The notes beneath the pieces are model-generated. The model was not told the DNA's origin and ran no database searches. It saw only the letters and a list, made by a program, of their open reading frames with translations. A stretch of 64,000 bases of DNA from a virus, in IMG/VR virus record IMGVR_UViG_3300035661_000011, positions 64,001 to 128,000 of that record; one strand, written 5' to 3'. Positions 4,596-19,114 of this stretch are shown here, piece after piece. The number at the start of each line of letters is the position of its first letter. Position 1 is the stretch's first letter. The position numbers and the translations under genes are program-made.

Positions 4596-6113
4596 ATGAC
4601 AAATGTAACAATTCCATTACGAGAAAGTAGTAGTTCAATAACACTACCTATAGTTAAAGCTGTAGTAGAACAATTTCTGTTTCTTTCTGAAGCTGAACAT
4701 ATCAGAAATATCATTTACACACAGAGAACTAACAAAAATACACAGAAGCAAACCAATGAAATACAAGAACCTTTACGTTTAGAAACTAACGAATTAATAA
4801 AGGTCGAATATAGTGTAAAACCAGATACAACAATTGCAGATAACGATAAGTATCTACGAGACTACTTACCTATTTTTAATAACAAAAAACTAGGTGTAGT
4901 TTTAACACCTATGCATGCACATATGGTGTTAGAGATGAATGTTACATATAGGTCACAAAGCTATGACGATTTACTCATATGGCTGACTAACCATGTTAGA
5001 AACACAATGCGATTATCTGCTAGCTCACACCATAACATTTTGTATAACATAACCATACCAGATGAAGTCTACGATTACTTATATGATGTATGGGGTTTAA
5101 CTGAAACGGTTGCGCCGTATGGTAATACGTTTCGTGAGTTTTTAATCGATGGGTTTGTTACTGGTTTATCATTAAGAAAAAATAAAAGTGAAACTGCTGA
5201 AAAACTAATAGTGGCAATTAAAAACACAGCGTGTTTAGGGATGTATACTACATTACCACCCGAAGTGCCAACTACCCAAGGTGAACCACCATTCTCAGAG
5301 ATTACGTTTACATACACGCTTAATTTTGAACAACCTACTGCACTTATACTACGGTTCCAGAAAATCGTCCATAATCGACTTGTAGACATTCGGAGACTAT
5401 ATAAGTTTGCAGATAGAAACTTACACGATGACCCAATGCGAGGAACACACAGTTTAGCTGGAGTGGTGTATGACCAAACAAAAAATCAACAAAATGTAGT
5501 AACGTATCCAGCAAGGTATGTTAATGAATCCGATGGGTGGGTACCAGAGGTTGTACAACCAGGACACAAAATTTACACACTGACTCCTATTCGATTAGAC
5601 TTAGATGATTTACACAGCGTAATAACCTTTTCAGATTTAATTGAATTAGGGTTTCCTGACTGGATGTTAAATGTAGTTATGACGGATATAGTGGCTCCAG
5701 TAACTCCATCTAAGTGGTTTTATCTATTTGTTTTATATGAGGTTAATGAAACAGAAAACATAGTTCCAATTTACATTGATGTTGAATCTGGTGAAATTAA
5801 ATCTATGATTTCATTAGACCCCAGAAGTAGACATTACTTATGTGTTTATAAAAACTTTAAATTGGGTACTGTGGATTTATCAGTGTTACGCAAAGACCCT
5901 GTGTTACTCACTCAAATATTTAATAACTACATACCAAATACACAACTGATTACTATCGGAAATGGTAGTTATGTAGTTACAGATAGTTTACTTACACAAA
6001 TGAACAATGTGTTAGCATTACTGCAACAGCCGTGGGATAATCCAAACTATGTACCGTATAAAGTATTACGTGACGGTACATTCACTTCCACTGTTGTTAG
6101 AAACCAACATTAA
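4596..6113 (+). CDS. Virion structural protein (phiKZ gp98-like position)
   Basis: 505 aa ORF; synteny. Confidence 0.55.
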   Translation: MTNVTIPLRESSSSITLPIVKAVVEQFLFLSEAEHIRNIIYTQRTNKNTQKQTNEIQEPLRLETNELIKVEYSVKPDTTIADNDKYLRDYLPIFNNKKLGVVLTPMHAHMVLEMNVTYRSQSYDDLLIWLTNHVRNTMRLSASSHHNILYNITIPDEVYDYLYDVWGLTETVAPYGNTFREFLIDGFVTGLSLRKNKSETAEKLIVAIKNTACLGMYTTLPPEVPTTQGEPPFSEITFTYTLNFEQPTALILRFQKIVHNRLVDIRRLYKFADRNLHDDPMRGTHSLAGVVYDQTKNQQNVVTYPARYVNESDGWVPEVVQPGHKIYTLTPIRLDLDDLHSVITFSDLIELGFPDWMLNVVMTDIVAPVTPSKWFYLFVLYEVNETENIVPIYIDVESGEIKSMISLDPRSRHYLCVYKNFKLGTVDLSVLRKDPVLLTQIFNNYIPNTQLITIGNGSYVVTDSLLTQMNNVLALLQQPWDNPNYVPYKVLRDGTFTSTVVRNQH

Positions 6114-6125
6114 AGGAACCTGAGC

Positions 6126-7424
6126 ATGCCTACATTCAACGAAAACGATAACTACTATACGGAAGTACCACTAAAGGTAGAATCTATCCCACCGACTGAA
6201 TTTAATGAAATAATAGATTTGGATATTGATACCGCCAGCGTGTTTAGAGATATACAGTACGATGGTTCGGTACTACTGAGTTTAAATGGTAGCCCTAACA
6301 ACGTAACGTATTACTCAAAGCTACTCCAGTCAGATGACTTAGTGGTTAATGCAGATGATATTTCCGATAGGACAATAAAACAGTATAGAAGGATTAACCA
6401 TCTTGAAATAAGGGTCACACAAGCTGATAGCATGACACTTGATGATTCAAGTAATACATCTGCTGTAACTGGTACAGCAAACTTCTACCCTGTGCTCACT
6501 CCACACATAGGGGATGTATTTGTAAAAGACATAGATTCCACAGAAGGGACATATGGTGTTTTTCAAGTAACCAATGTAGAAAGAAAATCTCCATATCACA
6601 TGAGCTCTTGGGGGATATCATATTCTCAAATCAGATACTCTAAGTCATTTAAAGATGAAGAGTCTGAACCATTTGTATTTGATGAAATTGATTTTGAGAT
6701 TAGTAATTTGGAGTTAGGTAGAAACCCCTTAGTTCCAGTGGTCACTAACTTAAAGTTACAAACTAAACAACAGATACGAGCTGAGTTAATACCCCTATAT
6801 TACCGAACGTTTTATAACAAACCGATTGGTACATTCATAGTTCCAATTAGTGGTGGCGGAACTGTATACGACCCATATCTTGTAAACTTTTGGAATTCTA
6901 CTATAAGTGTAAATGAATACTCTCCTTATGCAGCACCAATTGAATACCAGACTAACAACGCGTTTCATGAAAAAGAATACTCCACTGTGTTTGATGTGTA
7001 CATGAAGCAACAAATCGGATTACTACAAAATGTAGTAAAATGTATGGATAAAATATCAACATTGTTTTTTTCTGCACAGTTATTAAAAATAACAGCTTTT
7101 GCAACTGGGTTAGATTATATACTACATCCGCCGATGAACATAGATTGGGACGACGCACCTATGTTTAAACCAGAGGTAATAGTTCCAGTTATACCACCAA
7201 CTGATCCAATCGTGTTACCGACACCATACATCTTTAGTAACAACTTTTATGATAGTGGAGTACCGGATACATTGTTGGAAAAGTTAATATTAAGCGTGAT
7301 TTCACGTAAGACTATATCTACAAAAGACGTTAACCAAGCTTTAGAAATTGTTAAAACTGGAACTAAACTAGAACAGTTCTATCACATACCTTTTATTTTA
7401 TCATTGTTACAGGTGTCGAGATGA
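6126..7424 (+). CDS. Virion structural protein, phiKZ gp99-like
   Basis: 432 aa; VTYYSKLL, QYRRINHLEIRV, PHIGDVF, YDPYLVNF and EQFYHIP motifs; synteny. Confidence 0.65.
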   Translation: MPTFNENDNYYTEVPLKVESIPPTEFNEIIDLDIDTASVFRDIQYDGSVLLSLNGSPNNVTYYSKLLQSDDLVVNADDISDRTIKQYRRINHLEIRVTQADSMTLDDSSNTSAVTGTANFYPVLTPHIGDVFVKDIDSTEGTYGVFQVTNVERKSPYHMSSWGISYSQIRYSKSFKDEESEPFVFDEIDFEISNLELGRNPLVPVVTNLKLQTKQQIRAELIPLYYRTFYNKPIGTFIVPISGGGTVYDPYLVNFWNSTISVNEYSPYAAPIEYQTNNAFHEKEYSTVFDVYMKQQIGLLQNVVKCMDKISTLFFSAQLLKITAFATGLDYILHPPMNIDWDDAPMFKPEVIVPVIPPTDPIVLPTPYIFSNNFYDSGVPDTLLEKLILSVISRKTISTKDVNQALEIVKTGTKLEQFYHIPFILSLLQVSR

Positions 7425-8089
7425 GTGGAGATATTCCGACGTATGAATCTTTACAAAAATACACACAGCTTTTATTTGACCGCACGTACAGATGTATGTG
7501 TGATTTAGTGAGCTTATCGGTTATACAAAAGTTACCTGAGTTAGATATACCTGATACGCCGTTTATTGAGTCGATTGGTATGCATGGTTTTAATTTAGGT
7601 GTGGTAAGAAGTGAAACTAATAACACTTACGATTTGTTAGAAACAGCGTATGGGTGGTCACGTGACTTAGGTGGATATGAGTTTTCACAACACAAAGGTG
7701 AGGGCAGTGTAGAATCTCACAACTTCACGATAGTGCAGATTGCTGAGATTGTGGCTGGGTATGGTAGAGTTGACTTAACATCGGTTAATGACGGAAGAGA
7801 AATTGCTTTTAATATAAGTAAATTTTTAGAAGTAGAAGAAAAATACGCAAGAGTAGATTTACATTATGAACGTCCACCTAAAGAAGATTTACAGGGGCTA
7901 AGAAACTTGTTAGCGTTAGTTGATGGGTTCTTAGAAAAAGCACCAGTTAGAAGTCACAGTAACCGCAAACCTTTACGTTTCGGAACTACTTCTGCAAGTA
8001 CGATAAACAACACTATTACATTACGTAGACAGCAAGAATACCGTGATGACCCAAGAACTCATATTAACCCACATAACTTTTCAAGATGA
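7421..8089 (+). CDS. Hypothetical protein (phiKZ gp100-like position)
   Basis: 222 aa, ATGA-coupled on both sides; RPPKEDL motif. Confidence 0.55.
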   Translation: MSGDIPTYESLQKYTQLLFDRTYRCMCDLVSLSVIQKLPELDIPDTPFIESIGMHGFNLGVVRSETNNTYDLLETAYGWSRDLGGYEFSQHKGEGSVESHNFTIVQIAEIVAGYGRVDLTSVNDGREIAFNISKFLEVEEKYARVDLHYERPPKEDLQGLRNLLALVDGFLEKAPVRSHSNRKPLRFGTTSASTINNTITLRRQQEYRDDPRTHINPHNFSR

Positions 8090-9435
8090 TTATAGACGAT
8101 AAGGTATTTCAGCAGCAGTTCCTTAAAGTGGGAACTTCTAAACAGAAACCAGTAAACTTTACATATAAAGCGGAGTTTGTAGATGAGAACAATAGTGTAA
8201 TTCCTGTACACAATGTTTTACGATTGCAAGTGGCTGCAAATTACATTGAGCATTTTAGTGATGTAATTTTCTACACTATGGATATGTTTAAAAGTAACTA
8301 TTTTAAACTACTGAAAACCAATCGTAAAAGCTTAATGTTACGAGTTACTAAAACTGAATGTTCTTATACTGGTATTATAAATCAAAATGCTACATCGTCT
8401 AGTAGATTATACGATGTAGCATTAACTAATACTACTTCGGAGGCAGTAGAAACTAGACCAGGTAAGTTAACTGGAACTGAGTGGGATGACTTAGGTGGAT
8501 TTCATGAACTTACAGTCCAATTAATAGAGAGAGGATTAAATGAATTTAGAAACTGGGATGTTCCAGCTAGAGTGTATAAAAACTGTAATCTGACTACATT
8601 GTTACAGGGGTTTATGTCAACCCCACTTAAGTCATTAGACCCAAACATGAAAGTTGGATACGGGTGTACTATACACCCACCAGATAACGATGTTAAGTTC
8701 TTTCAGCGTAAAATTCCAGCTGGGATTAGAATTTATAAGTTTCCTAGACATATGCAGAATACGGTGGGTGTATATGGAAACGGATTAGCGTCGTATTTAT
8801 CAAACTCTATGTGGCATGTGTTCCCAACACACAACGTAGATAGATACACTAATGGTTCTAAAAAGATGACTATTATAAACGTTCCAAGAAATGAGATGAT
8901 GGGAAATAACAATAGTTATTTTTTGGACGCTAATGACGATGAGTTATATGTATACGCTACAGGTGACACATCACACGTTGATAACTCTGATAGAGCAATG
9001 AATAAAGTTGGTACTGGGTTTACCACTGTAAATCCAAATAACCTACTGGACGGATTTGTTAAGAACGATAAAGGTACATTAGTTATTCCTAAAGGACAAA
9101 ACTTAATGAGTGTCAACTTTGATTCTCGTTCTAGTGATATTAACAATGTAAAAACTAGTAAGCCTATATCTGGTAATCGTTTTAATGAAGCATCAAAAAT
9201 AACTAAGTCTATGGTTAATACAATTGTGGTAACGTGGGAGTATTCTAATACAGATTTATTGTACCCAGGTATGCCAGTTAAATTCATCTATAAGAATGGA
9301 GAGACTGCACATATGTTACATGGTGTTTTAGCAGGACATCACACCGAGGCAATAACACCCATGCAGTCTGTAACAGATCACAGGTACAAGTCCACAACTC
9401 AGTTAATACTAACTGTGGAACGAGCTAGTAATTAG
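8086..9435 (+). CDS. Virion structural (baseplate hub-like) protein, phiKZ gp101-like
   Basis: 449 aa; GVYGNGLASY and WEYSNTDLLYPGMPVK motifs; synteny. Confidence 0.65.
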   Translation: MIIDDKVFQQQFLKVGTSKQKPVNFTYKAEFVDENNSVIPVHNVLRLQVAANYIEHFSDVIFYTMDMFKSNYFKLLKTNRKSLMLRVTKTECSYTGIINQNATSSSRLYDVALTNTTSEAVETRPGKLTGTEWDDLGGFHELTVQLIERGLNEFRNWDVPARVYKNCNLTTLLQGFMSTPLKSLDPNMKVGYGCTIHPPDNDVKFFQRKIPAGIRIYKFPRHMQNTVGVYGNGLASYLSNSMWHVFPTHNVDRYTNGSKKMTIINVPRNEMMGNNNSYFLDANDDELYVYATGDTSHVDNSDRAMNKVGTGFTTVNPNNLLDGFVKNDKGTLVIPKGQNLMSVNFDSRSSDINNVKTSKPISGNRFNEASKITKSMVNTIVVTWEYSNTDLLYPGMPVKFIYKNGETAHMLHGVLAGHHTEAITPMQSVTDHRYKSTTQLILTVERASN

Positions 9436-9453
9436 AAAGTTCAATTTATATAA

Positions 9454-9468
9454 AAACATATATTATCT
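9454..9468 (+). promoter_or_regulatory. Putative early (virion RNAP) promoter motif, copy 1
   Basis: AAACATATATTATCT, intergenic, one of 10 copies; resembles the phiKZ early TATATTAC core. Confidence 0.75.
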
Positions 9469-9469
9469 T

Positions 9470-9650
9470 GGTGATATAGTTACTTTATCGCTTACACTAA
9501 AATGTGCGTCTGGAGGTTTAATTAACAACGGTGCATTACGAACCATTGATAAGTTAGGCGTTATTTCCATAGTTAACAATAAAAACTTATCACCTGCATA
9601 AACCTTATATGGTGGATCCCTGACAGAAATGTCAGGAGTCCACCACTAGT
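9470..9650 (+). ncRNA. Candidate structured small RNA or long structured leader
   Basis: No ORF of 60 aa or more between promoter copy 1 and a GAAA-loop hairpin; nested complementarity 9514-9520/9599-9605, 9532-9535/9595-9598, 9547-9555/9584-9592. Confidence 0.3.
9610..9645 (+). terminator. Imperfect hairpin with GAAA loop
   Basis: TGGTGGA-TC-CCTGACA GAAA TGTCAGG-AG-TCCACCA. Confidence 0.55.
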
Positions 9651-9684
9651 TTAAAACATTTAACTTTATTCGGAGATTTACAGT

Positions 9685-10632
9685 ATGTCATCAACTACCA
9701 ATATTACTAAAGAACAAGAAGCTTACATTATCACACTTATTGAAAATGGCGGGTTCTTAAAAGAAGAAGATTTACAGTACAGGGATGTGTTTCGTGCTGT
9801 TGGATTTGTAGTGACTCATGATAACGGGGAGTTCTATTTAACCGGTATGACGCATATACAGAGTGGTATTTTAACAAAATACCGCATTTCAGCACTACAC
9901 AAGAAGATGTTAATGAAAGGACATGACGTTCCACTGGATGTGGTCGCAGCACTTGTGAAACAATCACATACCAAAGTGCACCCAGTGTTATTTCAGTTAG
10001 GTGTAATTTTTACAAACGACACCTTACTAAAACACTTTCTAAGAAACCCACTGTTTTTACACGGTAGTGTTTCAGAAAGTTCAACGTGTGACTATGAAGA
10101 TTGGTTACAACGAACTATGTCTGTGGCTACAATCTACCAGTTTCAAACGATATTAAAGGCACATGATTTAAAGTTGATAGAAACTGCTATTGACAAAGTG
10201 CACACTCAGCTGAAAGGAGTTATCGATTTTGTAAAGTATGAAAAACCAAAAGATTACATTAGATACAATCAACCAAAATTAAGGTTGGGGAATCTTTGTA
10301 TTAAAGAAATTCTCGATTACGGTAAGGATTTTACTGAAGAAGCAGAGTGGGTACTTAAACAGCATTTAAAGTTGGAAGATTGTAAGTTCCCATATTTGCT
10401 GTGTAGTAAGAAGAAACGCGAAATAAATGAGCCAGACGAAGTCGTAGTGCTTCAAAAGTATACAACCGCTGGTGAAGCATTGAGTGAATGTAAAAAGCAC
10501 TCTGGGCGACTTATTGTGATGATTAATTTTAAACGTAACAAGTTGGGATGGTTTGAGTTACATGAACGTATAACGAGCGGAAAATATGTTTACATTGGTT
10601 CCGAAGATCGTCTAACTACACACAAGGGGTAA
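9685..10632 (+). CDS. Hypothetical protein (early cassette)
   Basis: 315 aa, SD GGAG upstream. Confidence 0.7.
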   Translation: MSSTTNITKEQEAYIITLIENGGFLKEEDLQYRDVFRAVGFVVTHDNGEFYLTGMTHIQSGILTKYRISALHKKMLMKGHDVPLDVVAALVKQSHTKVHPVLFQLGVIFTNDTLLKHFLRNPLFLHGSVSESSTCDYEDWLQRTMSVATIYQFQTILKAHDLKLIETAIDKVHTQLKGVIDFVKYEKPKDYIRYNQPKLRLGNLCIKEILDYGKDFTEEAEWVLKQHLKLEDCKFPYLLCSKKKREINEPDEVVVLQKYTTAGEALSECKKHSGRLIVMINFKRNKLGWFELHERITSGKYVYIGSEDRLTTHKG

Positions 10633-10635
10633 CTT

Positions 10636-11097
10636 ATGCTAACTACAGAAGAAAAAGCAAATTTGTTAGAAACGTTAGCTTGGGTAGTTGACAATGTTAG
10701 ACGTGTTAACCTTATACGGATAGATCTGGAGACTGGAAAAATCCAACTACACACTGAACAGATTTCTGGAATTTCCGGATTATGTACACTGTATGAACAG
10801 GGGTGGAGTTACACAAGTCTAAGTAAAAACACGTTTGAATTAACGCCCCCGGTTACCGACGATGTACACACTGGGTTATCCGTGTATGAACTAGATATAC
10901 CGATGGTAACTAAACGTGCATTGGTAACTACATTTGGAACAGTGTATCGTGGCAAACGTAGAACCGATATGTCCTTAGGAGATTTAGTTAAACTAACGCC
11001 ATTACAACTGTGTTCAGCATACAACGTGGGAAAAGTTAGTGTCTACAAAATAATCAGAGCGTTATCTGAACACAACCTTACTCTGGCCGATAAGTAA
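10636..11097 (+). CDS. Protein with C-terminal RNA polymerase alpha-CTD-like (HhH) domain
   Basis: SVYELDIPMVTKRAL...SLGDLVKLTPLQLCSAYNVGKVSVYKIIRALSEHNLTL aligns by eye with RpoA PVDDLELTVRSANCL...[38 protein letters not shown]. Confidence 0.75.
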   Translation: MLTTEEKANLLETLAWVVDNVRRVNLIRIDLETGKIQLHTEQISGISGLCTLYEQGWSYTSLSKNTFELTPPVTDDVHTGLSVYELDIPMVTKRALVTTFGTVYRGKRRTDMSLGDLVKLTPLQLCSAYNVGKVSVYKIIRALSEHNLTLADK

Positions 11098-11105
11098 AAG
11101 TGGTA

Positions 11106-11141
11106 AATACACCACGTGTCTATATAGACACGTGGTGTATT
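11106..11141. terminator. 36-bp perfect palindrome between convergent genes
   Basis: AATACACCACGTGTCTAT|ATAGACACGTGGTGTATT. Confidence 0.75.
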
Positions 11142-11206
11142 ATACTAATGGCTTATTTTTTAACTAATCAAACTATTTTTTTTTTTAAGTTTACAACCCA
11201 CACAGT

Positions 11207-12724
11207 TTAATCATCAAAGAAACTAGAAGATGACATAGAGTTGGAATTTGGTAACCTAAATAAAGCTGTGGACTCCATACCTACGTCTGGTTTAATACCA
11301 CCTAACTCAAACTTATAATAAAAGTCTCTACGGTTCATAGGGATAAAGTCACCCTCTCTTCGTTTTCCCCTCGAAACACACCAGTATGAACTACCATCAA
11401 TATGCTTACACACATTTGATAAAATTTCCATATCGAGTTCACTATATATACTCTTAGAGTTTTCATACCAGCTACCCTCAGCAAACAGTTTTGTACATCC
11501 GCCAGGGTTTTCTTTTGCTATGGCTCTAGCTTGTGAATCTAATTGTGCACCAGTAGCTAAAGCTATACCTTTGGGGTAGCAGTAACTTCTCATTATGTCA
11601 TAGGTTAATGCTAACTTTATATCATCCCTAGGAGCAGGTGTGTGCTTTGCTATTTTTGTAGCATAGTCAAAGTTACACATATGTATTTCATACCCATCAG
11701 AAATAATTTTATCCAATAGACTAATGAGGTTAAATACACTAAACACATTAGGGTTACATTTGATGAGAAAGACTTTATATCCAGTTTCATCAAAATACTC
11801 CCGTATGTATTCGCCAGCAGCTTCTTTTACAATTTTACCTAAAGGTGTATATACCCCTGTTTCTCTCCAGTGAGCACGCTGATACAAAACAGGTACATCT
11901 TGTTCAGTTGTAGTCTCAACACTAACTCTAACAATTGCTGGTATTTTAGTTGGATCAAATAACCAAGGTTTAGTAAACTTTGGTACATTTAATGTTAAGT
12001 CTAATAAATGTCCAGTCTTATATCCGAATGAAACCGCCCCGATGTTATAAGTCCAACCTCGTATTAACCCACCACCTATAGCATCGTTTAAACCTTGATA
12101 TCCAGTGTTTAACATTCCCTTCTCATCGTTCATGGTTATACCACGGTCTAACGCCTTAGTGATATCTGCAATGTTACCAAAATCAACAATGGTTTCTACA
12201 CCCGGAATCTCTTCCTGACTCATACCTGTGTTAATATCTGACAACTCGGCAATTACTTCTGATAAGAAAGGCTGCATTTCTAAAAACTCACCACTAAAAC
12301 TAATTTTAGCATTTGCTTTCTGTAACGCTTTTCTTGCATTGTCTTTTTTAGTAATGAATCGTAACTCGTTAATAATAGAAGCAATACGACCATCTAACAT
12401 ATCTGGGTTAATCTCAACACGTAATACTTTTTCGACTACAGCCATGTATTCTGGGTTATCTCTACAGTTAATGCGCATTCGTCCAATTACATCTTCTGCG
12501 TGGTGTTTGGTGTCAATAGTGTAGAGCATCCATTCAGCTGAATCCCTAAGGTTTTCTACGATATTTTCATCACTACCAACACCCATTGTAAATTTAGGGT
12601 CAATTTTAATCTTATCTAATATTCGTTTTACTTCATCTTTAATGTGATGTGAACATCCTTCTTTATGACCACACAGGTATAAAAGAGTAATTATTTTAAT
12701 CAACTTTAAAACTTCGTTATCCAT
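11207..12724 (-). CDS. Replicative DnaB-like helicase (phiKZ gp118-like)
   Basis: LNTGYQGLNDAIGGGLIRG...GAVSFGYKT Walker A variant, CNFDY Walker B, TGAQL, RGKRR; divergent from the capsid operon as in phiKZ. Confidence 0.85.
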   Translation of the reverse strand: MDNEVLKLIKIITLLYLCGHKEGCSHHIKDEVKRILDKIKIDPKFTMGVGSDENIVENLRDSAEWMLYTIDTKHHAEDVIGRMRINCRDNPEYMAVVEKVLRVEINPDMLDGRIASIINELRFITKKDNARKALQKANAKISFSGEFLEMQPFLSEVIAELSDINTGMSQEEIPGVETIVDFGNIADITKALDRGITMNDEKGMLNTGYQGLNDAIGGGLIRGWTYNIGAVSFGYKTGHLLDLTLNVPKFTKPWLFDPTKIPAIVRVSVETTTEQDVPVLYQRAHWRETGVYTPLGKIVKEAAGEYIREYFDETGYKVFLIKCNPNVFSVFNLISLLDKIISDGYEIHMCNFDYATKIAKHTPAPRDDIKLALTYDIMRSYCYPKGIALATGAQLDSQARAIAKENPGGCTKLFAEGSWYENSKSIYSELDMEILSNVCKHIDGSSYWCVSRGKRREGDFIPMNRRDFYYKFELGGIKPDVGMESTALFRLPNSNSMSSSSFFDD

Positions 12725-13284: not shown

Positions 13285-15579
13285 ATGGCATACTTCGGAT
13301 TAAAAACACTAGATAGCGCATCTGTATCAGCAAGAGCTGCTATCAAAAACATCGTACTAAGTAACGGTAGCTTACTTGGGAAAGACGACCTCTATGGATT
13401 TTGTGGTTTGGAAGCACTTAGCGATAGACGCAAAATGCCAGAGTTCCTTGACAAAGTTGGTGTAGTGGTTGATGTTTTAAAACGCGATCCAGCAATCACA
13501 ACTTGGGTAACTGGCTTAGCTACACCAGATAGAAACGCCGTATACTTTGGTACTAATGCTGCACAGTCTGTAGCTGGTATGGAGTCTATTAGAGACAGCT
13601 GGGTAGACGACGCATTCCAAACATTAGCAGTTTCATTAATGTCACAAATGTCACCACACGAAACCGTAAAACAGTATAATAACATCTGTCCTCAAGCTGG
13701 CAGTGAACGTATCGCACATTCTTTTCAAGGTGCTCCATCTTTAGCTGGTTTAGATAACCCTACTTGGGGTGAGAAATGGGGATTGGAGTCATTTGATCCA
13801 ATCCAACATTTGGATTTCATTGCCGCTTCTGCAATGATTAATGCACAAACTTCTATCCCTGGTGGGTTTGAAGACACGTGGTTTCCTGCTATCTCTTTAC
13901 CACCTGGTCAGGCTGGTTACGATGTACAGATTCAAGTACCAAAGATTTTAATTACACGTTATCGTAATACTTCATCTGGCGCACCTATGCTTCTGCAAAA
14001 AGTGAACTTAGTTGAAGCTGCATACAACCCATCGATTATGGCGTCTAACGGAATTGATATTATTCCAATCGCTATCTCTGCTACAGAACCTGCTCAGTTA
14101 GTTGTTGAAGCTTTAGTTCCTGCTTGGGAAAAAGAAATCCTAGGCGAGAAAATGAAGACTCGACCAATCATCTTTGGTGAAGAAGTTGGTTTAATCGAAC
14201 TTGCTACCTTTAAAGGTATCGAGAACGGTGGTACAATGGACACCACAGATGCCTTATATACTAACATCGGTATTAAAGACATTTACTTTAAAGTAACTGT
14301 AACTACAGGCAAGAATACTGCTACACCAGTTGTTAAATCTGCGGTAATTAAAAACGATGTTACTAACGTAGTCGGTACACTGTTGCAACAAAAGACATTA
14401 GGTCGTCCACAAGGCTTACAAACCACAACCGAAGCACCATTGTATTTAAGTAGCGATTTTACTCCTGTTTCTGGCGACACAAATGCTGACGTTATTGGTG
14501 CCATTCGCAATATCATGGGTCTAGCTGCATCAGCTAAATTTACACTGCAAGGTGTAGTTCGTTTATCTGCTACAGCTGATACTGAAATCGGCAGTATGGT
14601 AGTTGACCAAGCACAACCAAAAGTGGTTTCCGCATTTGGTCCAGTTAAATCTGGTCAGTTACCAATCACGTATGATATCTCAACATTGGACAGCGCAGCT
14701 ACCAGTGTAACTATCACTATGGTTGGGTGGTATCCATCTGCTAAACGTACTAACTCAAACTTACGTACCAATGGAACAATCATTGATGCAAGCAACGTTG
14801 TAAACTACCGTTTGCCTATCAACGTATTTCCTCCATTTACTGCACGTACTGCATTAAACACAACTGACCAAATTACATTTGAAACTTTGGCTAACGTTAC
14901 ACAGTTGTGGGTGTCTGGACAATGTGTTGAAAAGTTATTACAAATGGAAGATTGGTTAACTGAAGTTTCTGGCACTCCAATGGGTGTCGGTGTAATGACT
15001 AACCAGTGTCCAATCATGGGTGGCGAATTTGTTATTCCAACACTTCGTAAAGACTTTGTTGATTTGCAATCATTATGCAAAAACTGGCAGTCTAAAGACA
15101 CATTGGCTAACATTCGCGCCACTATCCAAACAAGTATTATGTACAACTCTTTAGCGTTGTATATGGAGTCTGGTTATTCTTCAGCGATGCAAATGCTGTT
15201 GTCTGATTTGGATGCATATGAAACAATCATTGTTACTGATCCATTGATTGCGCAATACTTTATGGAACCTGGTGATATAAGAACCTTTGGTGATAATCGT
15301 AAATATATCATCACCAAATCTAACAACAAAGACATTCGTGGTAAAGTGTATTACTCGTTCCGTTTAGTAGGTTCAGGTGATTTGGTACACCCTATGTCAT
15401 TCGGTTGCAGATTACAATCACCAAACATCACATATGAAGTTGTACCTATGGCTCGTAGTGGTGCGACATACCGCGAAATTCAATCTATGCCACGTGTAGT
15501 ACCCTATGCTAATTTACCAGTGTTAGGCGTGCTTCTTATTCGTGGGTTGGATACATTCGCTAGCTCACCTGCACAATAG
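13285..15579 (+). CDS. Major capsid protein (phiKZ gp120-like)
   Basis: 764 aa; WGLES maturation site followed by FEDTWFP; TRPIIFG, DTTDAL, AKRTNSNLRTNG, IIVTDPLIAQY, NLPVLG motifs; biased codon usage. Confidence 0.9.
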   Translation: MAYFGLKTLDSASVSARAAIKNIVLSNGSLLGKDDLYGFCGLEALSDRRKMPEFLDKVGVVVDVLKRDPAITTWVTGLATPDRNAVYFGTNAAQSVAGMESIRDSWVDDAFQTLAVSLMSQMSPHETVKQYNNICPQAGSERIAHSFQGAPSLAGLDNPTWGEKWGLESFDPIQHLDFIAASAMINAQTSIPGGFEDTWFPAISLPPGQAGYDVQIQVPKILITRYRNTSSGAPMLLQKVNLVEAAYNPSIMASNGIDIIPIAISATEPAQLVVEALVPAWEKEILGEKMKTRPIIFGEEVGLIELATFKGIENGGTMDTTDALYTNIGIKDIYFKVTVTTGKNTATPVVKSAVIKNDVTNVVGTLLQQKTLGRPQGLQTTTEAPLYLSSDFTPVSGDTNADVIGAIRNIMGLAASAKFTLQGVVRLSATADTEIGSMVVDQAQPKVVSAFGPVKSGQLPITYDISTLDSAATSVTITMVGWYPSAKRTNSNLRTNGTIIDASNVVNYRLPINVFPPFTARTALNTTDQITFETLANVTQLWVSGQCVEKLLQMEDWLTEVSGTPMGVGVMTNQCPIMGGEFVIPTLRKDFVDLQSLCKNWQSKDTLANIRATIQTSIMYNSLALYMESGYSSAMQMLLSDLDAYETIIVTDPLIAQYFMEPGDIRTFGDNRKYIITKSNNKDIRGKVYYSFRLVGSGDLVHPMSFGCRLQSPNITYEVVPMARSGATYREIQSMPRVVPYANLPVLGVLLIRGLDTFASSPAQ

Positions 15580-16340: not shown

Positions 16341-16355
16341 AAACATATATTATCT
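16341..16355 (+). promoter_or_regulatory. Putative early promoter motif, copy 3
   Basis: AAACATATATTATCT exact; heads the operon containing the non-virion RNAP subunit. Confidence 0.75.
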
Positions 16356-17515: not shown

Positions 17516-19114
17516 ATGGATTCGAAAATGCTAGATTACTGTAACGAACGAGTTGCAAAGCTGAATACAGATATTATCACCAGTGTTGCCACTACTCAAT
17601 TAAACAAAGTGGAGATGTATATAGATTGGGTATGGAAATGTGCATCTAAAGGCTTTCCTGAGGGATTAAAGTATAAGGGTGGTAGACGGTGCACACCAAG
17701 AGAAACGTTTACTGAGCTAACTAAAACAGGCTCCCCTAACCGTATCTATGACATGGCTAGGTCTGATGTATATCTAATGCGATACGATTTCGAATACAAA
17801 GGTGTAAAACTAAAACCTAAACATATCTTTTTACCGTTTATAAACGATGGTGGACTTATGTTTATTCGTGACACGCAATATAGCGTGACACCAGTTATCA
17901 GTGGGAGGGTTTTTAATATAGAACAAAATAACATTTACTTGCCTTCCACACGACTACGTATGGGGTTTTGGCAAATCAACATTTCCTGTTTGGTAAACGA
18001 CATGGAAATTAACCCGTATGCAGTAGGTAGTTATCTGTTTTCAATTTACCCAGAAACAGATAGATCGCCGTTAAAACCATTACTCATACATTACCTTTTA
18101 GCAAAATATGGCTTGGCTAAAACGTTAAAGTTTTATAAACTAACTGCAAAAGTTGGTGGTAAAGAATTAGATGAACTAGACAAATCAAAATGGTTTGTCT
18201 TTAAAAGTAAACTGATACACACTGCTGCTTTCTATGAGGGTTTAGCACCAGAGATAAGAATAGCTGTATCATGCGAAACATATTACACATTAGCCAGCAA
18301 TATCATAGCTAGTATCTTTTATATATTCGATAATGCGGCTGAGGCAACAGCGGAGTTGGATGAATTAAATAATCCAAATCTATGGTTACGGTTATTAGAC
18401 TTTTTTATATATAAGGAACGTTGTGGAGAAACCAAATTAAAAGAGCGAATGACAAAACATTTAGAGTCGATGGAATCTACCATTGACTCTATTACAATTG
18501 ATACGTTTAGACGAGCAGGAGTGGACTCTAGTACGATTTTTGAATTGTTCCGTCACCTTACCCTTAACTTTCAGGATATGTGCGTACATTACGATTATGG
18601 GACGATGTACGATTTACAATTGTGTACAGTTGAACCATTAACGTTTGGTGTTAGAAAGGATATATTTAACACTATGTATATTTTGCAGAAAACTCCAGAT
18701 ATCTATTTGGAGGAAGCTAAGATAAATAGCATAATCTCTAAAAATATAAAGAGAGATAGAATTTTAGATTGGAAAGGACATGGTGAGTTAGAACCTGTAA
18801 GCGTGGCATCGTCTTGTATGGTATTTGGCCCATCTGCTGATTTAATTACACATCGTAAAGCAACAGGGGTCTCTGGTGACGGAATGGTAGACTTAAACGA
18901 TAGAGGTCTACTGATGCATCAGAGTTTATTAGAAATTGCATCTATACACGCATGTACAGGCAAAGATTTTACGGGGAGATCTATAGCCAACCCGTATCAG
19001 GAGTTTTCAAACGGCTATGTTACATCACAGGCATCAGATACTAAGAGTCAGTTAGATAGACTTGGTGCTCAATTAAAACGAGGAAAACATTTAAATGAGG
19101 TTAATTTATGCTAG
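17516..19114 (+). CDS. Non-virion RNA polymerase beta-like subunit (phiKZ gp123-like)
   Basis: FPEGLKYKGGRRCTPRE, YDMARSDVYLMRYDF, IFLPF, TGRSIANPY motifs; synteny with the capsid gene. Confidence 0.85.
   Translation: MDSKMLDYCNERVAKLNTDIITSVATTQLNKVEMYIDWVWKCASKGFPEGLKYKGGRRCTPRETFTELTKTGSPNRIYDMARSDVYLMRYDFEYKGVKLKPKHIFLPFINDGGLMFIRDTQYSVTPVISGRVFNIEQNNIYLPSTRLRMGFWQINISCLVNDMEINPYAVGSYLFSIYPETDRSPLKPLLIHYLLAKYGLAKTLKFYKLTAKVGGKELDELDKSKWFVFKSKLIHTAAFYEGLAPEIRIAVSCETYYTLASNIIASIFYIFDNAAEATAELDELNNPNLWLRLLDFFIYKERCGETKLKERMTKHLESMESTIDSITIDTFRRAGVDSSTIFELFRHLTLNFQDMCVHYDYGTMYDLQLCTVEPLTFGVRKDIFNTMYILQKTPDIYLEEAKINSIISKNIKRDRILDWKGHGELEPVSVASSCMVFGPSADLITHRKATGVSGDGMVDLNDRGLLMHQSLLEIASIHACTGKDFTGRSIANPYQEFSNGYVTSQASDTKSQLDRLGAQLKRGKHLNEVNLC

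Follow-up and report, generated by a model that had tools for sequence, protein, structure and literature searches.

The gene at 10636..11097 (+ strand, ATG start) encodes a 153-aa protein of two domains, in which an orphan N-terminal module is joined, as judged from the structural model, to a strongly diverged form of the fold of the C-terminal domain found in the alpha subunit of RNA polymerase (RpoA alpha-CTD). Positions are those of the analysed window, a stretch of 64,000 nucleotides that makes up bases 64001-128000 of a 154.5-kb IMG/VR virus record with an estimated completeness of 54%. What is new here is an alpha-CTD variant that stays below the family threshold, bears an insertion and has its DNA contacts replaced. 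We see about an even chance that the protein is an early, lineage-specific accessory factor, whose remodelled basic domain would use a mode unlike UP-element reading to bind nucleic acid, probably DNA.

By gene content, the source is a divergent, uncultured phiKZ-like (nucleus-forming type) jumbo phage. Its virion genes, for head-tail joining among others, lie at 4596-9435, and the capsid gene, of PhiKZ_MCP type, at 13285-15579; we also found a divergent DnaB-like helicase gene on the minus strand at 11207-12724 and, at 17516-19111, a homologue (E 7.5e-43) of PHIKZ123, a subunit of the non-virion RNA polymerase (nvRNAP) solved in PDB 7OGP. Compared with its counterparts in the closest annotated phages (Vibrio phage BONAISHI and others), the helicase is only about 31% identical, and a megablast search of phage records gave no match. 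Since the PHIKZ123 homologue and the capsid gene are both present, the earlier note was right to describe a phiKZ-type phage with its own RNA polymerase. RNA polymerases of phiKZ-like phages have no alpha subunit, and their transcription is independent of host RNA polymerase; a copy of a host polymerase domain in a probably early gene is therefore not explained by the phage's own machinery. DNA of the record is present in metagenomes of sediment and of microbial mats. No tRNA was found in the window, and Rfam gave nothing credible for 9400-11250.

The gene begins 3 nt past the stop of a preceding 315-aa gene, and a Shine-Dalgarno-like AAGGGG lies 6-7 nt upstream of it. The dN/dS of about 0.25, a rough value because dS was saturated (above 1), indicates purifying selection, and the open reading frame proposed earlier can be taken as a coding gene. 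The N-terminal domain (residues 1-78, 10636..10869, + strand) is predicted to be alpha/beta and is acidic to neutral; its AF2 pLDDT was about 50. No relatives of it were detected in Pfam, PHROG, NCBIfam or PDB, in agreement with the proposal of a fusion to an unrelated N-terminal domain, and it gave no alignment with the N-terminal module of Atraxi gp24, a Microbacterium phage protein treated below. The alpha-CTD-fold domain occupies residues 79-153 (10870..11094, + strand) and carries a net charge of +5. For the protein as a whole, PHROGs, PADLOC and NCBIfam gave nothing meaningful, and no paralogue was found within the 154-kb record. An AbiEi match (E 0.028 over 15 residues) was rejected as noise. 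A truncated RpoA was also rejected, the N-terminal domain having no RpoA similarity: in Pfam and NCBIfam searches the dimerisation and assembly domains of RpoA (Pfam RNA_pol_L, RNA_pol_A_bac) were absent from residues 1-78, and the NCBIfam rpoA models matched residues 112-152 only, with 13-14 bits vs cut-offs of 228-277.

At the level of sequence, the link of the C-terminal domain to the alpha-CTD family is weak but specific. PF03118 (RNA_pol_A_CTD) was the sole Pfam family at E <= 10 (E 0.039, 14.1 bits, profile positions 35-67). The score stayed below the gathering threshold of 23.8 bits (67-position profile), both for the whole protein, at 14.1 bits, and for the C-domain taken alone, at 15.9 bits; the two relatives searched singly gave no Pfam match. 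HMMER aligned residues 113-151 with the E. coli and Francisella alpha-CTD chains, matching GDLV, N-x-G-K-x-S and L-x-L. A phmmer search of 1.84 billion representatives revealed one true homologue, P0002 (51% identity), and in the same library a 1031-aa protein with 11 tandem alpha-CTD domains, P0003, matched at E 1.9e-5. An HMM built from 10 of the P0003 alpha-CTD repeats gave the phage protein 22.1 bits, vs a best of 6.6 bits in 1000 shuffles. The family-only profile of three members reached 89% probability in hhalign (E 2e-6). In tblastn of phage records, we found Atraxi gp24 (139 aa, 'DNA binding protein'), which shares 36% identity with residues 67-152 and has a PF03118 score of its own, 42.7 bits, above the threshold; adding it to the hhalign profile extended the match to the whole domain (83-152) at 95%. 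B-Raf kinase chains came at the top of the PDB profile search with the two-member alignment (E about 0.2). We rejected this likeness as a coincidence in which FGTVYxGK resembles the kinase glycine-rich loop, because the matches were not significant and the fold context is different.

The modelled structure agreed with the sequence comparison. The AF2 model built from a three-sequence alignment, which included one bona fide alpha-CTD protein, gave residues 81-150 a pLDDT whose block means ran from 72 to 90, with the minimum at the insertion. A model from the single sequence was poor, at pLDDT 49, yet had the same four helices; it was left out of the fold search. In Foldseek against PDB, the top 50 matches were all RpoA or alpha-CTD, with target TM of 0.75-0.86 for isolated CTD chains. 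VIA-align, a method independent of Foldseek, against 48,161 chains placed B. subtilis alpha-CTD (1z3e_B) first, with Z 11.5 and rmsd 1.2 Å over 67 of 67 residues; further RpoA matches were E. coli 4mex_A (Z 10.4), H. pylori 2max (Z 9.0) and plastid alpha 8w9z_A (Z 8.4). The alignment-free ESM Atlas search gave PF03118 on the top feature match and on 8 of 9 structural rows. In the model, then, residues ~79-153 clearly adopt the RpoA alpha-CTD fold, ranked above other helix-hairpin-helix (HhH) and SAM folds, and the likeness of the C-terminal ~75 aa to alpha-CTD, with its GDLV and N.GK.S motifs, that had first been noticed by eye was recovered in both the HMMER alignments and the fold searches.

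A sub-threshold Pfam score covering half of the profile might also be expected of a generic HhH DNA-binding domain, whose alpha-CTD likeness would be fold-level convergence within the (HhH)2/SAM-like class; RAD51-paralogue N-domains, Rev1 and SAM domains do align with the model, at Z 5-7.7. We consider this very improbable. The best non-RpoA match, to RAD51-paralogue N-domains, had Z 7.7, and SAM domains had about 5, so that at their best RpoA alpha-CTDs stand about 4 Z units higher, with the entire domain covered; even at E <= 10, Pfam reported no other family of HhH type. Transitive sequence similarity to Atraxi gp24 and the library-wide phmmer match to P0003 argue in the same direction. In the Pfam and VIA-align searches, the better match to a generic HhH family that the earlier note had allowed for was not found, and in VIA-align RpoA alpha-CTDs outrank both the RAD51-paralogue N-domains and the SAM domains.

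The fold of the RpoA alpha-CTD (about 249-329; PF03118; 1z3e_B, 1lb2_B, 3n97, 4mex_A) is the same compact four-helix HhH-type fold. Four motifs are shared as well: helix 1 opens with L-x-L, GDL precedes helix 2, the hairpin reads N-x-G-K-x-S, and a further L-x-L is terminal. The phage protein differs in having no RpoA N-terminal (dimerisation/assembly) domain, in being encoded where the RNA polymerases have no alpha subunit, and in the residues and insertion described next. Identity to RpoA alpha-CTDs is 14-26%. The earlier description of a captured host domain found no support in the sense of a recent event: there is no sign of recent capture, because identity to RpoA is low and the nearest sequence relatives are non-RpoA alpha-CTD proteins.

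Residue equivalences were taken from the HMMER alignments to the E. coli and B. subtilis alpha-CTD chains, with the numbering of E. coli RpoA. In the phage protein, R265 corresponds to V91, A267 to K93, N268 to R94, C269 to A95, G296 to G132, K297 to K133, K298 to V134 and S299 to S135, so the V, R and V read by eye at R265, N268 and K298 were correct. UP-element DNA is contacted through the '265 determinant' (R265, N268, C269, G296, K298 and S299), and in E. coli alpha the loss of R265 or K298 abolishes UP-element binding. Across the three members of the phage family, R265 is replaced by V/V/A, N268 by R/K/K, C269 by A/A/T and K298 by V/V/V; of this determinant G296 alone is kept in all three (G/G/G), and S299 in two (S/G/S). 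The residue equivalent to A267 is lysine in all three, K93 being invariant, and together with the R or K at N268 it makes two basic positions on helix 1, close to the lost R265 contact. Because the R265 and K298 equivalents are hydrophobic in every member, the domain may not bind DNA at all. Judged from the aligned residues as a whole, two key UP-element contacts are lost (R265 to V, K298 to V) and the DNA face is remodelled, not simply lost.

The insertion lies between helix 1 and helix 2, at residues 100-111 (FGTVYRGKRRTD, 10933..10968, + strand), where all alpha-CTD alignments have a gap; opposite T98-S113 the B. subtilis alpha-CTD and Atraxi gp24 alignments show a gap of 10 residues. F100, G101, T102, Y104, G106 and R109 are invariant in the three members (FGTxYxGxxR), and AF2 strands at 102-104 and 108-111 predict a beta-hairpin. 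The basic insertion after helix 1 reported earlier is thus real, 10 residues long and conserved in the family. Although the three members diverge by about 50%, the C-domain keeps a net charge of +4 to +6 and a pI of 9.6-9.9 in each of them.

These residues bear on a reading in which a free, DNA-blind alpha-CTD-like domain is a decoy or mimic that titrates or redirects host factors (CRP-type activators, NusA AR2, Spx-like factors, sigma region 4) or defence sensors. The alpha-CTD-like fold and the loss of the canonical DNA contacts R265 and K298 in all members would suit it, and so would the acidic equivalents of D259 and E261 (E85 and D87), which are kept in the 153-aa protein though not in its two relatives. 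A decoy would also help a phage that has its own RNA polymerase, and so is independent of that of the host, to silence the host. We nevertheless regard this as distinctly unlikely. A decoy should keep the docking surfaces of the host, and the low identity to RpoA alpha-CTDs speaks against this. CRP-type activators use the '287 determinant' (T285-L290, G315, R317 and L318). In the phage protein T121-P-L-Q-L-C126 stands against the T-E-V-E-L-L of E. coli (E286P, V287L, E288Q), a comparison in which the host's own alpha-CTD may differ from that of E. coli, and the protein ends at K153, at about position 317, so that the G315, R317 and L318 contacts are missing. The conserved net positive charge and the basic helix-1 residues fit nucleic-acid binding better.

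Upstream of the cassette, we found a candidate early-type (virion-RNAP-type) promoter motif, AACATATATTATCT-N4-G, at 9455..9473 (+ strand), with the G at 9473 as predicted start. We counted this 19-nt motif 8 times in the window (9455, 15656, 16342, 27317, 44634, 55522, 57799 and 63599), each time on the + strand, vs 0.5 expected; in the window no copy was found upstream of the virion operon or the capsid gene. It agrees in its core, and in its distance from the start G, with the experimentally mapped early (virion-RNAP) promoter consensus of the phiKZ-related phage AR9, AAATATATATTAT-(6N)-G (PMC5312081). In L012, a 70-kb IMG/VR contig, the orthologous gene pair has an identical 19-mer 54 nt upstream. 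The copy at 16342 precedes the operon with the PHIKZ123 homologue, and the nvRNAP of phiKZ is an early-gene product (PMC5312081). The motif suggests that very distant phiKZ-related phages have kept a common way of recognising early promoters. By analogy with AR9, we infer that the cassette would be transcribed early by an injected virion RNA polymerase, and the placement of the gene in an early cassette gains support, by the same analogy, from the motif and its conservation in L012. An early-type promoter would also be in keeping with a decoy.

The 5' leader contains an extra structured stretch of about 165 nt (9484..9650, + strand) that is absent from L012. Its RNA fold (z -2.7) is multi-branched with a strong hairpin at 9609-9646, and it belongs to no Rfam family. 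The stretch may represent an inserted element, or else act as a small RNA or as an attenuator, and by the folding model the hairpin, which stands between the early-type promoter and the gene, could attenuate expression. A second, palindromic hairpin lies at 11101..11147, between the convergent alpha-CTD-like and helicase genes (-33.4 kcal/mol, z -7.4). None of 200 shuffles was as good, T-runs follow on the + strand, and it is probably a bidirectional terminator. Long near-perfect palindromic hairpins (11101-11147 and 9609-9646) bound the transcription unit.

The 153-aa gene is by far the fastest evolving in its neighbourhood. In the comparison of the source phage with L012, its protein is 52% identical to its counterpart vs 77-94% for eight flanking proteins, and its dN is 0.41 vs 0.035-0.138 in the eight neighbouring genes, or 3-12 times theirs. 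By domain, dN is 0.58 for the N-domain and 0.26 for the C-domain. Such very fast evolution suggests that the protein engages a host component or host DNA, outside the conserved phage machinery; rapid change is typical of accessory, host-directed early genes, and we infer that this applies here. The rate is also what a decoy, as a host-directed protein, would be expected to show. In a related form of that reading, which we hold to be improbable, an early DNA-blind alpha-CTD look-alike would capture host factors or defence sensors as decoy or adaptor, with the basic beta-hairpin insertion as a new binding site and an arms race behind the elevated rate.

Three members of the family were found, and the phages that carry them are related to one another, uncultured and phiKZ-like, with sediment or microbial mats as their source. 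The third, of 155 aa, was located in L012 via the upstream gene, and searches of viral and metagenome contigs for further members gave the L012 contig only; the two relatives are all that was found across 1.8 billion representatives and other collections. PF03118 had no match in phiKZ, BONAISHI or Ralstonia phage FLC1-1B, in a search that recovered the positive control Atraxi, and gave noise only in Erwinia phage pEa_SNUABM_54.

The 315-aa orphan gene (9685..10632, + strand) that precedes the alpha-CTD-like gene is putatively co-transcribed with it. Its orthologues are 78% (P0007, L012) and 60% (contig L002) identical, and each stands directly before a gene of 153-155 aa, so that in each of the three phages the pair (313-315 aa and 153-155 aa) stands together, separated by 3 nt or overlapping by 4 nt. 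Pfam, PHROG, NCBIfam, PADLOC, PDB and Atlas offered no assignment for the 315-aa protein. The interval from the homologue of the virion gene phrog_3245 to the convergent DnaB-like helicase gene spans 9436-11206 in the window, 5914-8163 in L012 and 7513-7551 in BONAISHI (L005), where the helicase comes directly after the phrog_3245 homologue. It holds no gene in BONAISHI, two here, four in L012 (with extra ORFs of 89 and 109 aa) and at least three in L002, a short contig, and because of these differences in gene content we regard it as a variable accessory island. By this comparison, only one small clade of uncultured phiKZ-like phages has the two-gene cassette, whose variable island is flanked by a virion gene and the replicative helicase gene.

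In L002, a 202-aa gene directly downstream of the alpha-CTD-like gene (L002:1480-2088) shows weak collinear likeness to the alpha-CTD-like domain (hhalign E 3e-4, probability 38%), and is not significant against the alpha-CTD HMM. From its sequence, it may be a further-diverged tandem paralogue.

The constant pairing raises the possibility that the alpha-CTD-like domain is an adaptor in a phage complex, a protein-protein or weak DNA tether for the 315-aa protein, and that the pair acts as a unit on phage or host DNA. Both genes lie between the same promoter and terminator in addition to being adjacent in the three phages, and the first 40 residues of the 153-aa protein are among its better-conserved parts in the comparison with P0002 (64% identical). 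We think this possible but unlikely, as the two rates of evolution differ, slow in the partner (78% identity) but fast in the alpha-CTD-like protein (52%), a contrast seldom expected where two proteins form a tight obligate complex; moreover, gene neighbourhood alone is weak evidence, and the 315-aa partner has no recognisable domain.

Returning to the accessory factor with a nucleic-acid-binding domain, the reading that we prefer, the course of events might be as follows. The virion RNA polymerase, injected with the genome, would transcribe the cassette early from the AR9-type promoter, and the 153-aa protein would act soon after infection. Through its basic alpha-CTD-like domain it would attach to nucleic acid, most likely DNA, and this attachment would anchor or deliver the N-terminal module, and possibly the co-encoded 315-aa protein too.

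Free phage proteins with an alpha-CTD domain already bear such labels: examples are BFVD/UniProt names, Atraxi gp24 and ORF40 of an Erythrobacter phage (PMC9127768). They have a common architecture and size, in which some 60-80 residues form an N-terminal module that varies and the alpha-CTD-fold domain makes up the C-terminal part, and the 153-aa protein shows this architecture in the AF2 model, in VIA-align and in its similarity to Atraxi gp24; its structural neighbours in BFVD are such proteins. Atraxi gp24 keeps the R265 and N268 equivalents, has no insertion and passes PF03118, none of which is true of the 153-aa protein, and the present family differs further in being confined to a phiKZ-like clade. 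The alpha-CTD is a known target of other phages. T4 Alt and ModA ADP-ribosylate R265 of the host alpha-CTD, and the lambda CII activator contacts the alpha-CTD. The common theme is the alpha-CTD interface as an early lever on host transcription (for background see PMC5312081). These proteins act on the host's own alpha-CTD, whereas here the phage encodes a copy of the fold, with no enzymatic domain. In the literature searched, we found no experimental study of a phage-encoded alpha-CTD mimic, nor an experimentally assigned role for any of the free phage proteins of this kind.

Should host DNA or host factors prove to be what the protein binds, it would represent a kind of host-takeover tool that has yet to be characterised in nucleus-forming phages. 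By database label, free alpha-CTD domains occur again and again in many phages, so one biochemical characterisation would inform the whole class. With its classical DNA contacts replaced and a conserved insertion added, the 153-aa protein is a natural variant that is useful for asking what the alpha-CTD fold does outside RNA polymerase.

The 1031-aa protein P0003, encoded outside the window, begins with a hydrophobic N-terminus that resembles a signal peptide, and its 11 tandem RNA_pol_A_CTD domains (Pfam E 5.8e-139) come after it, an odd architecture for a domain known from RNA polymerase.
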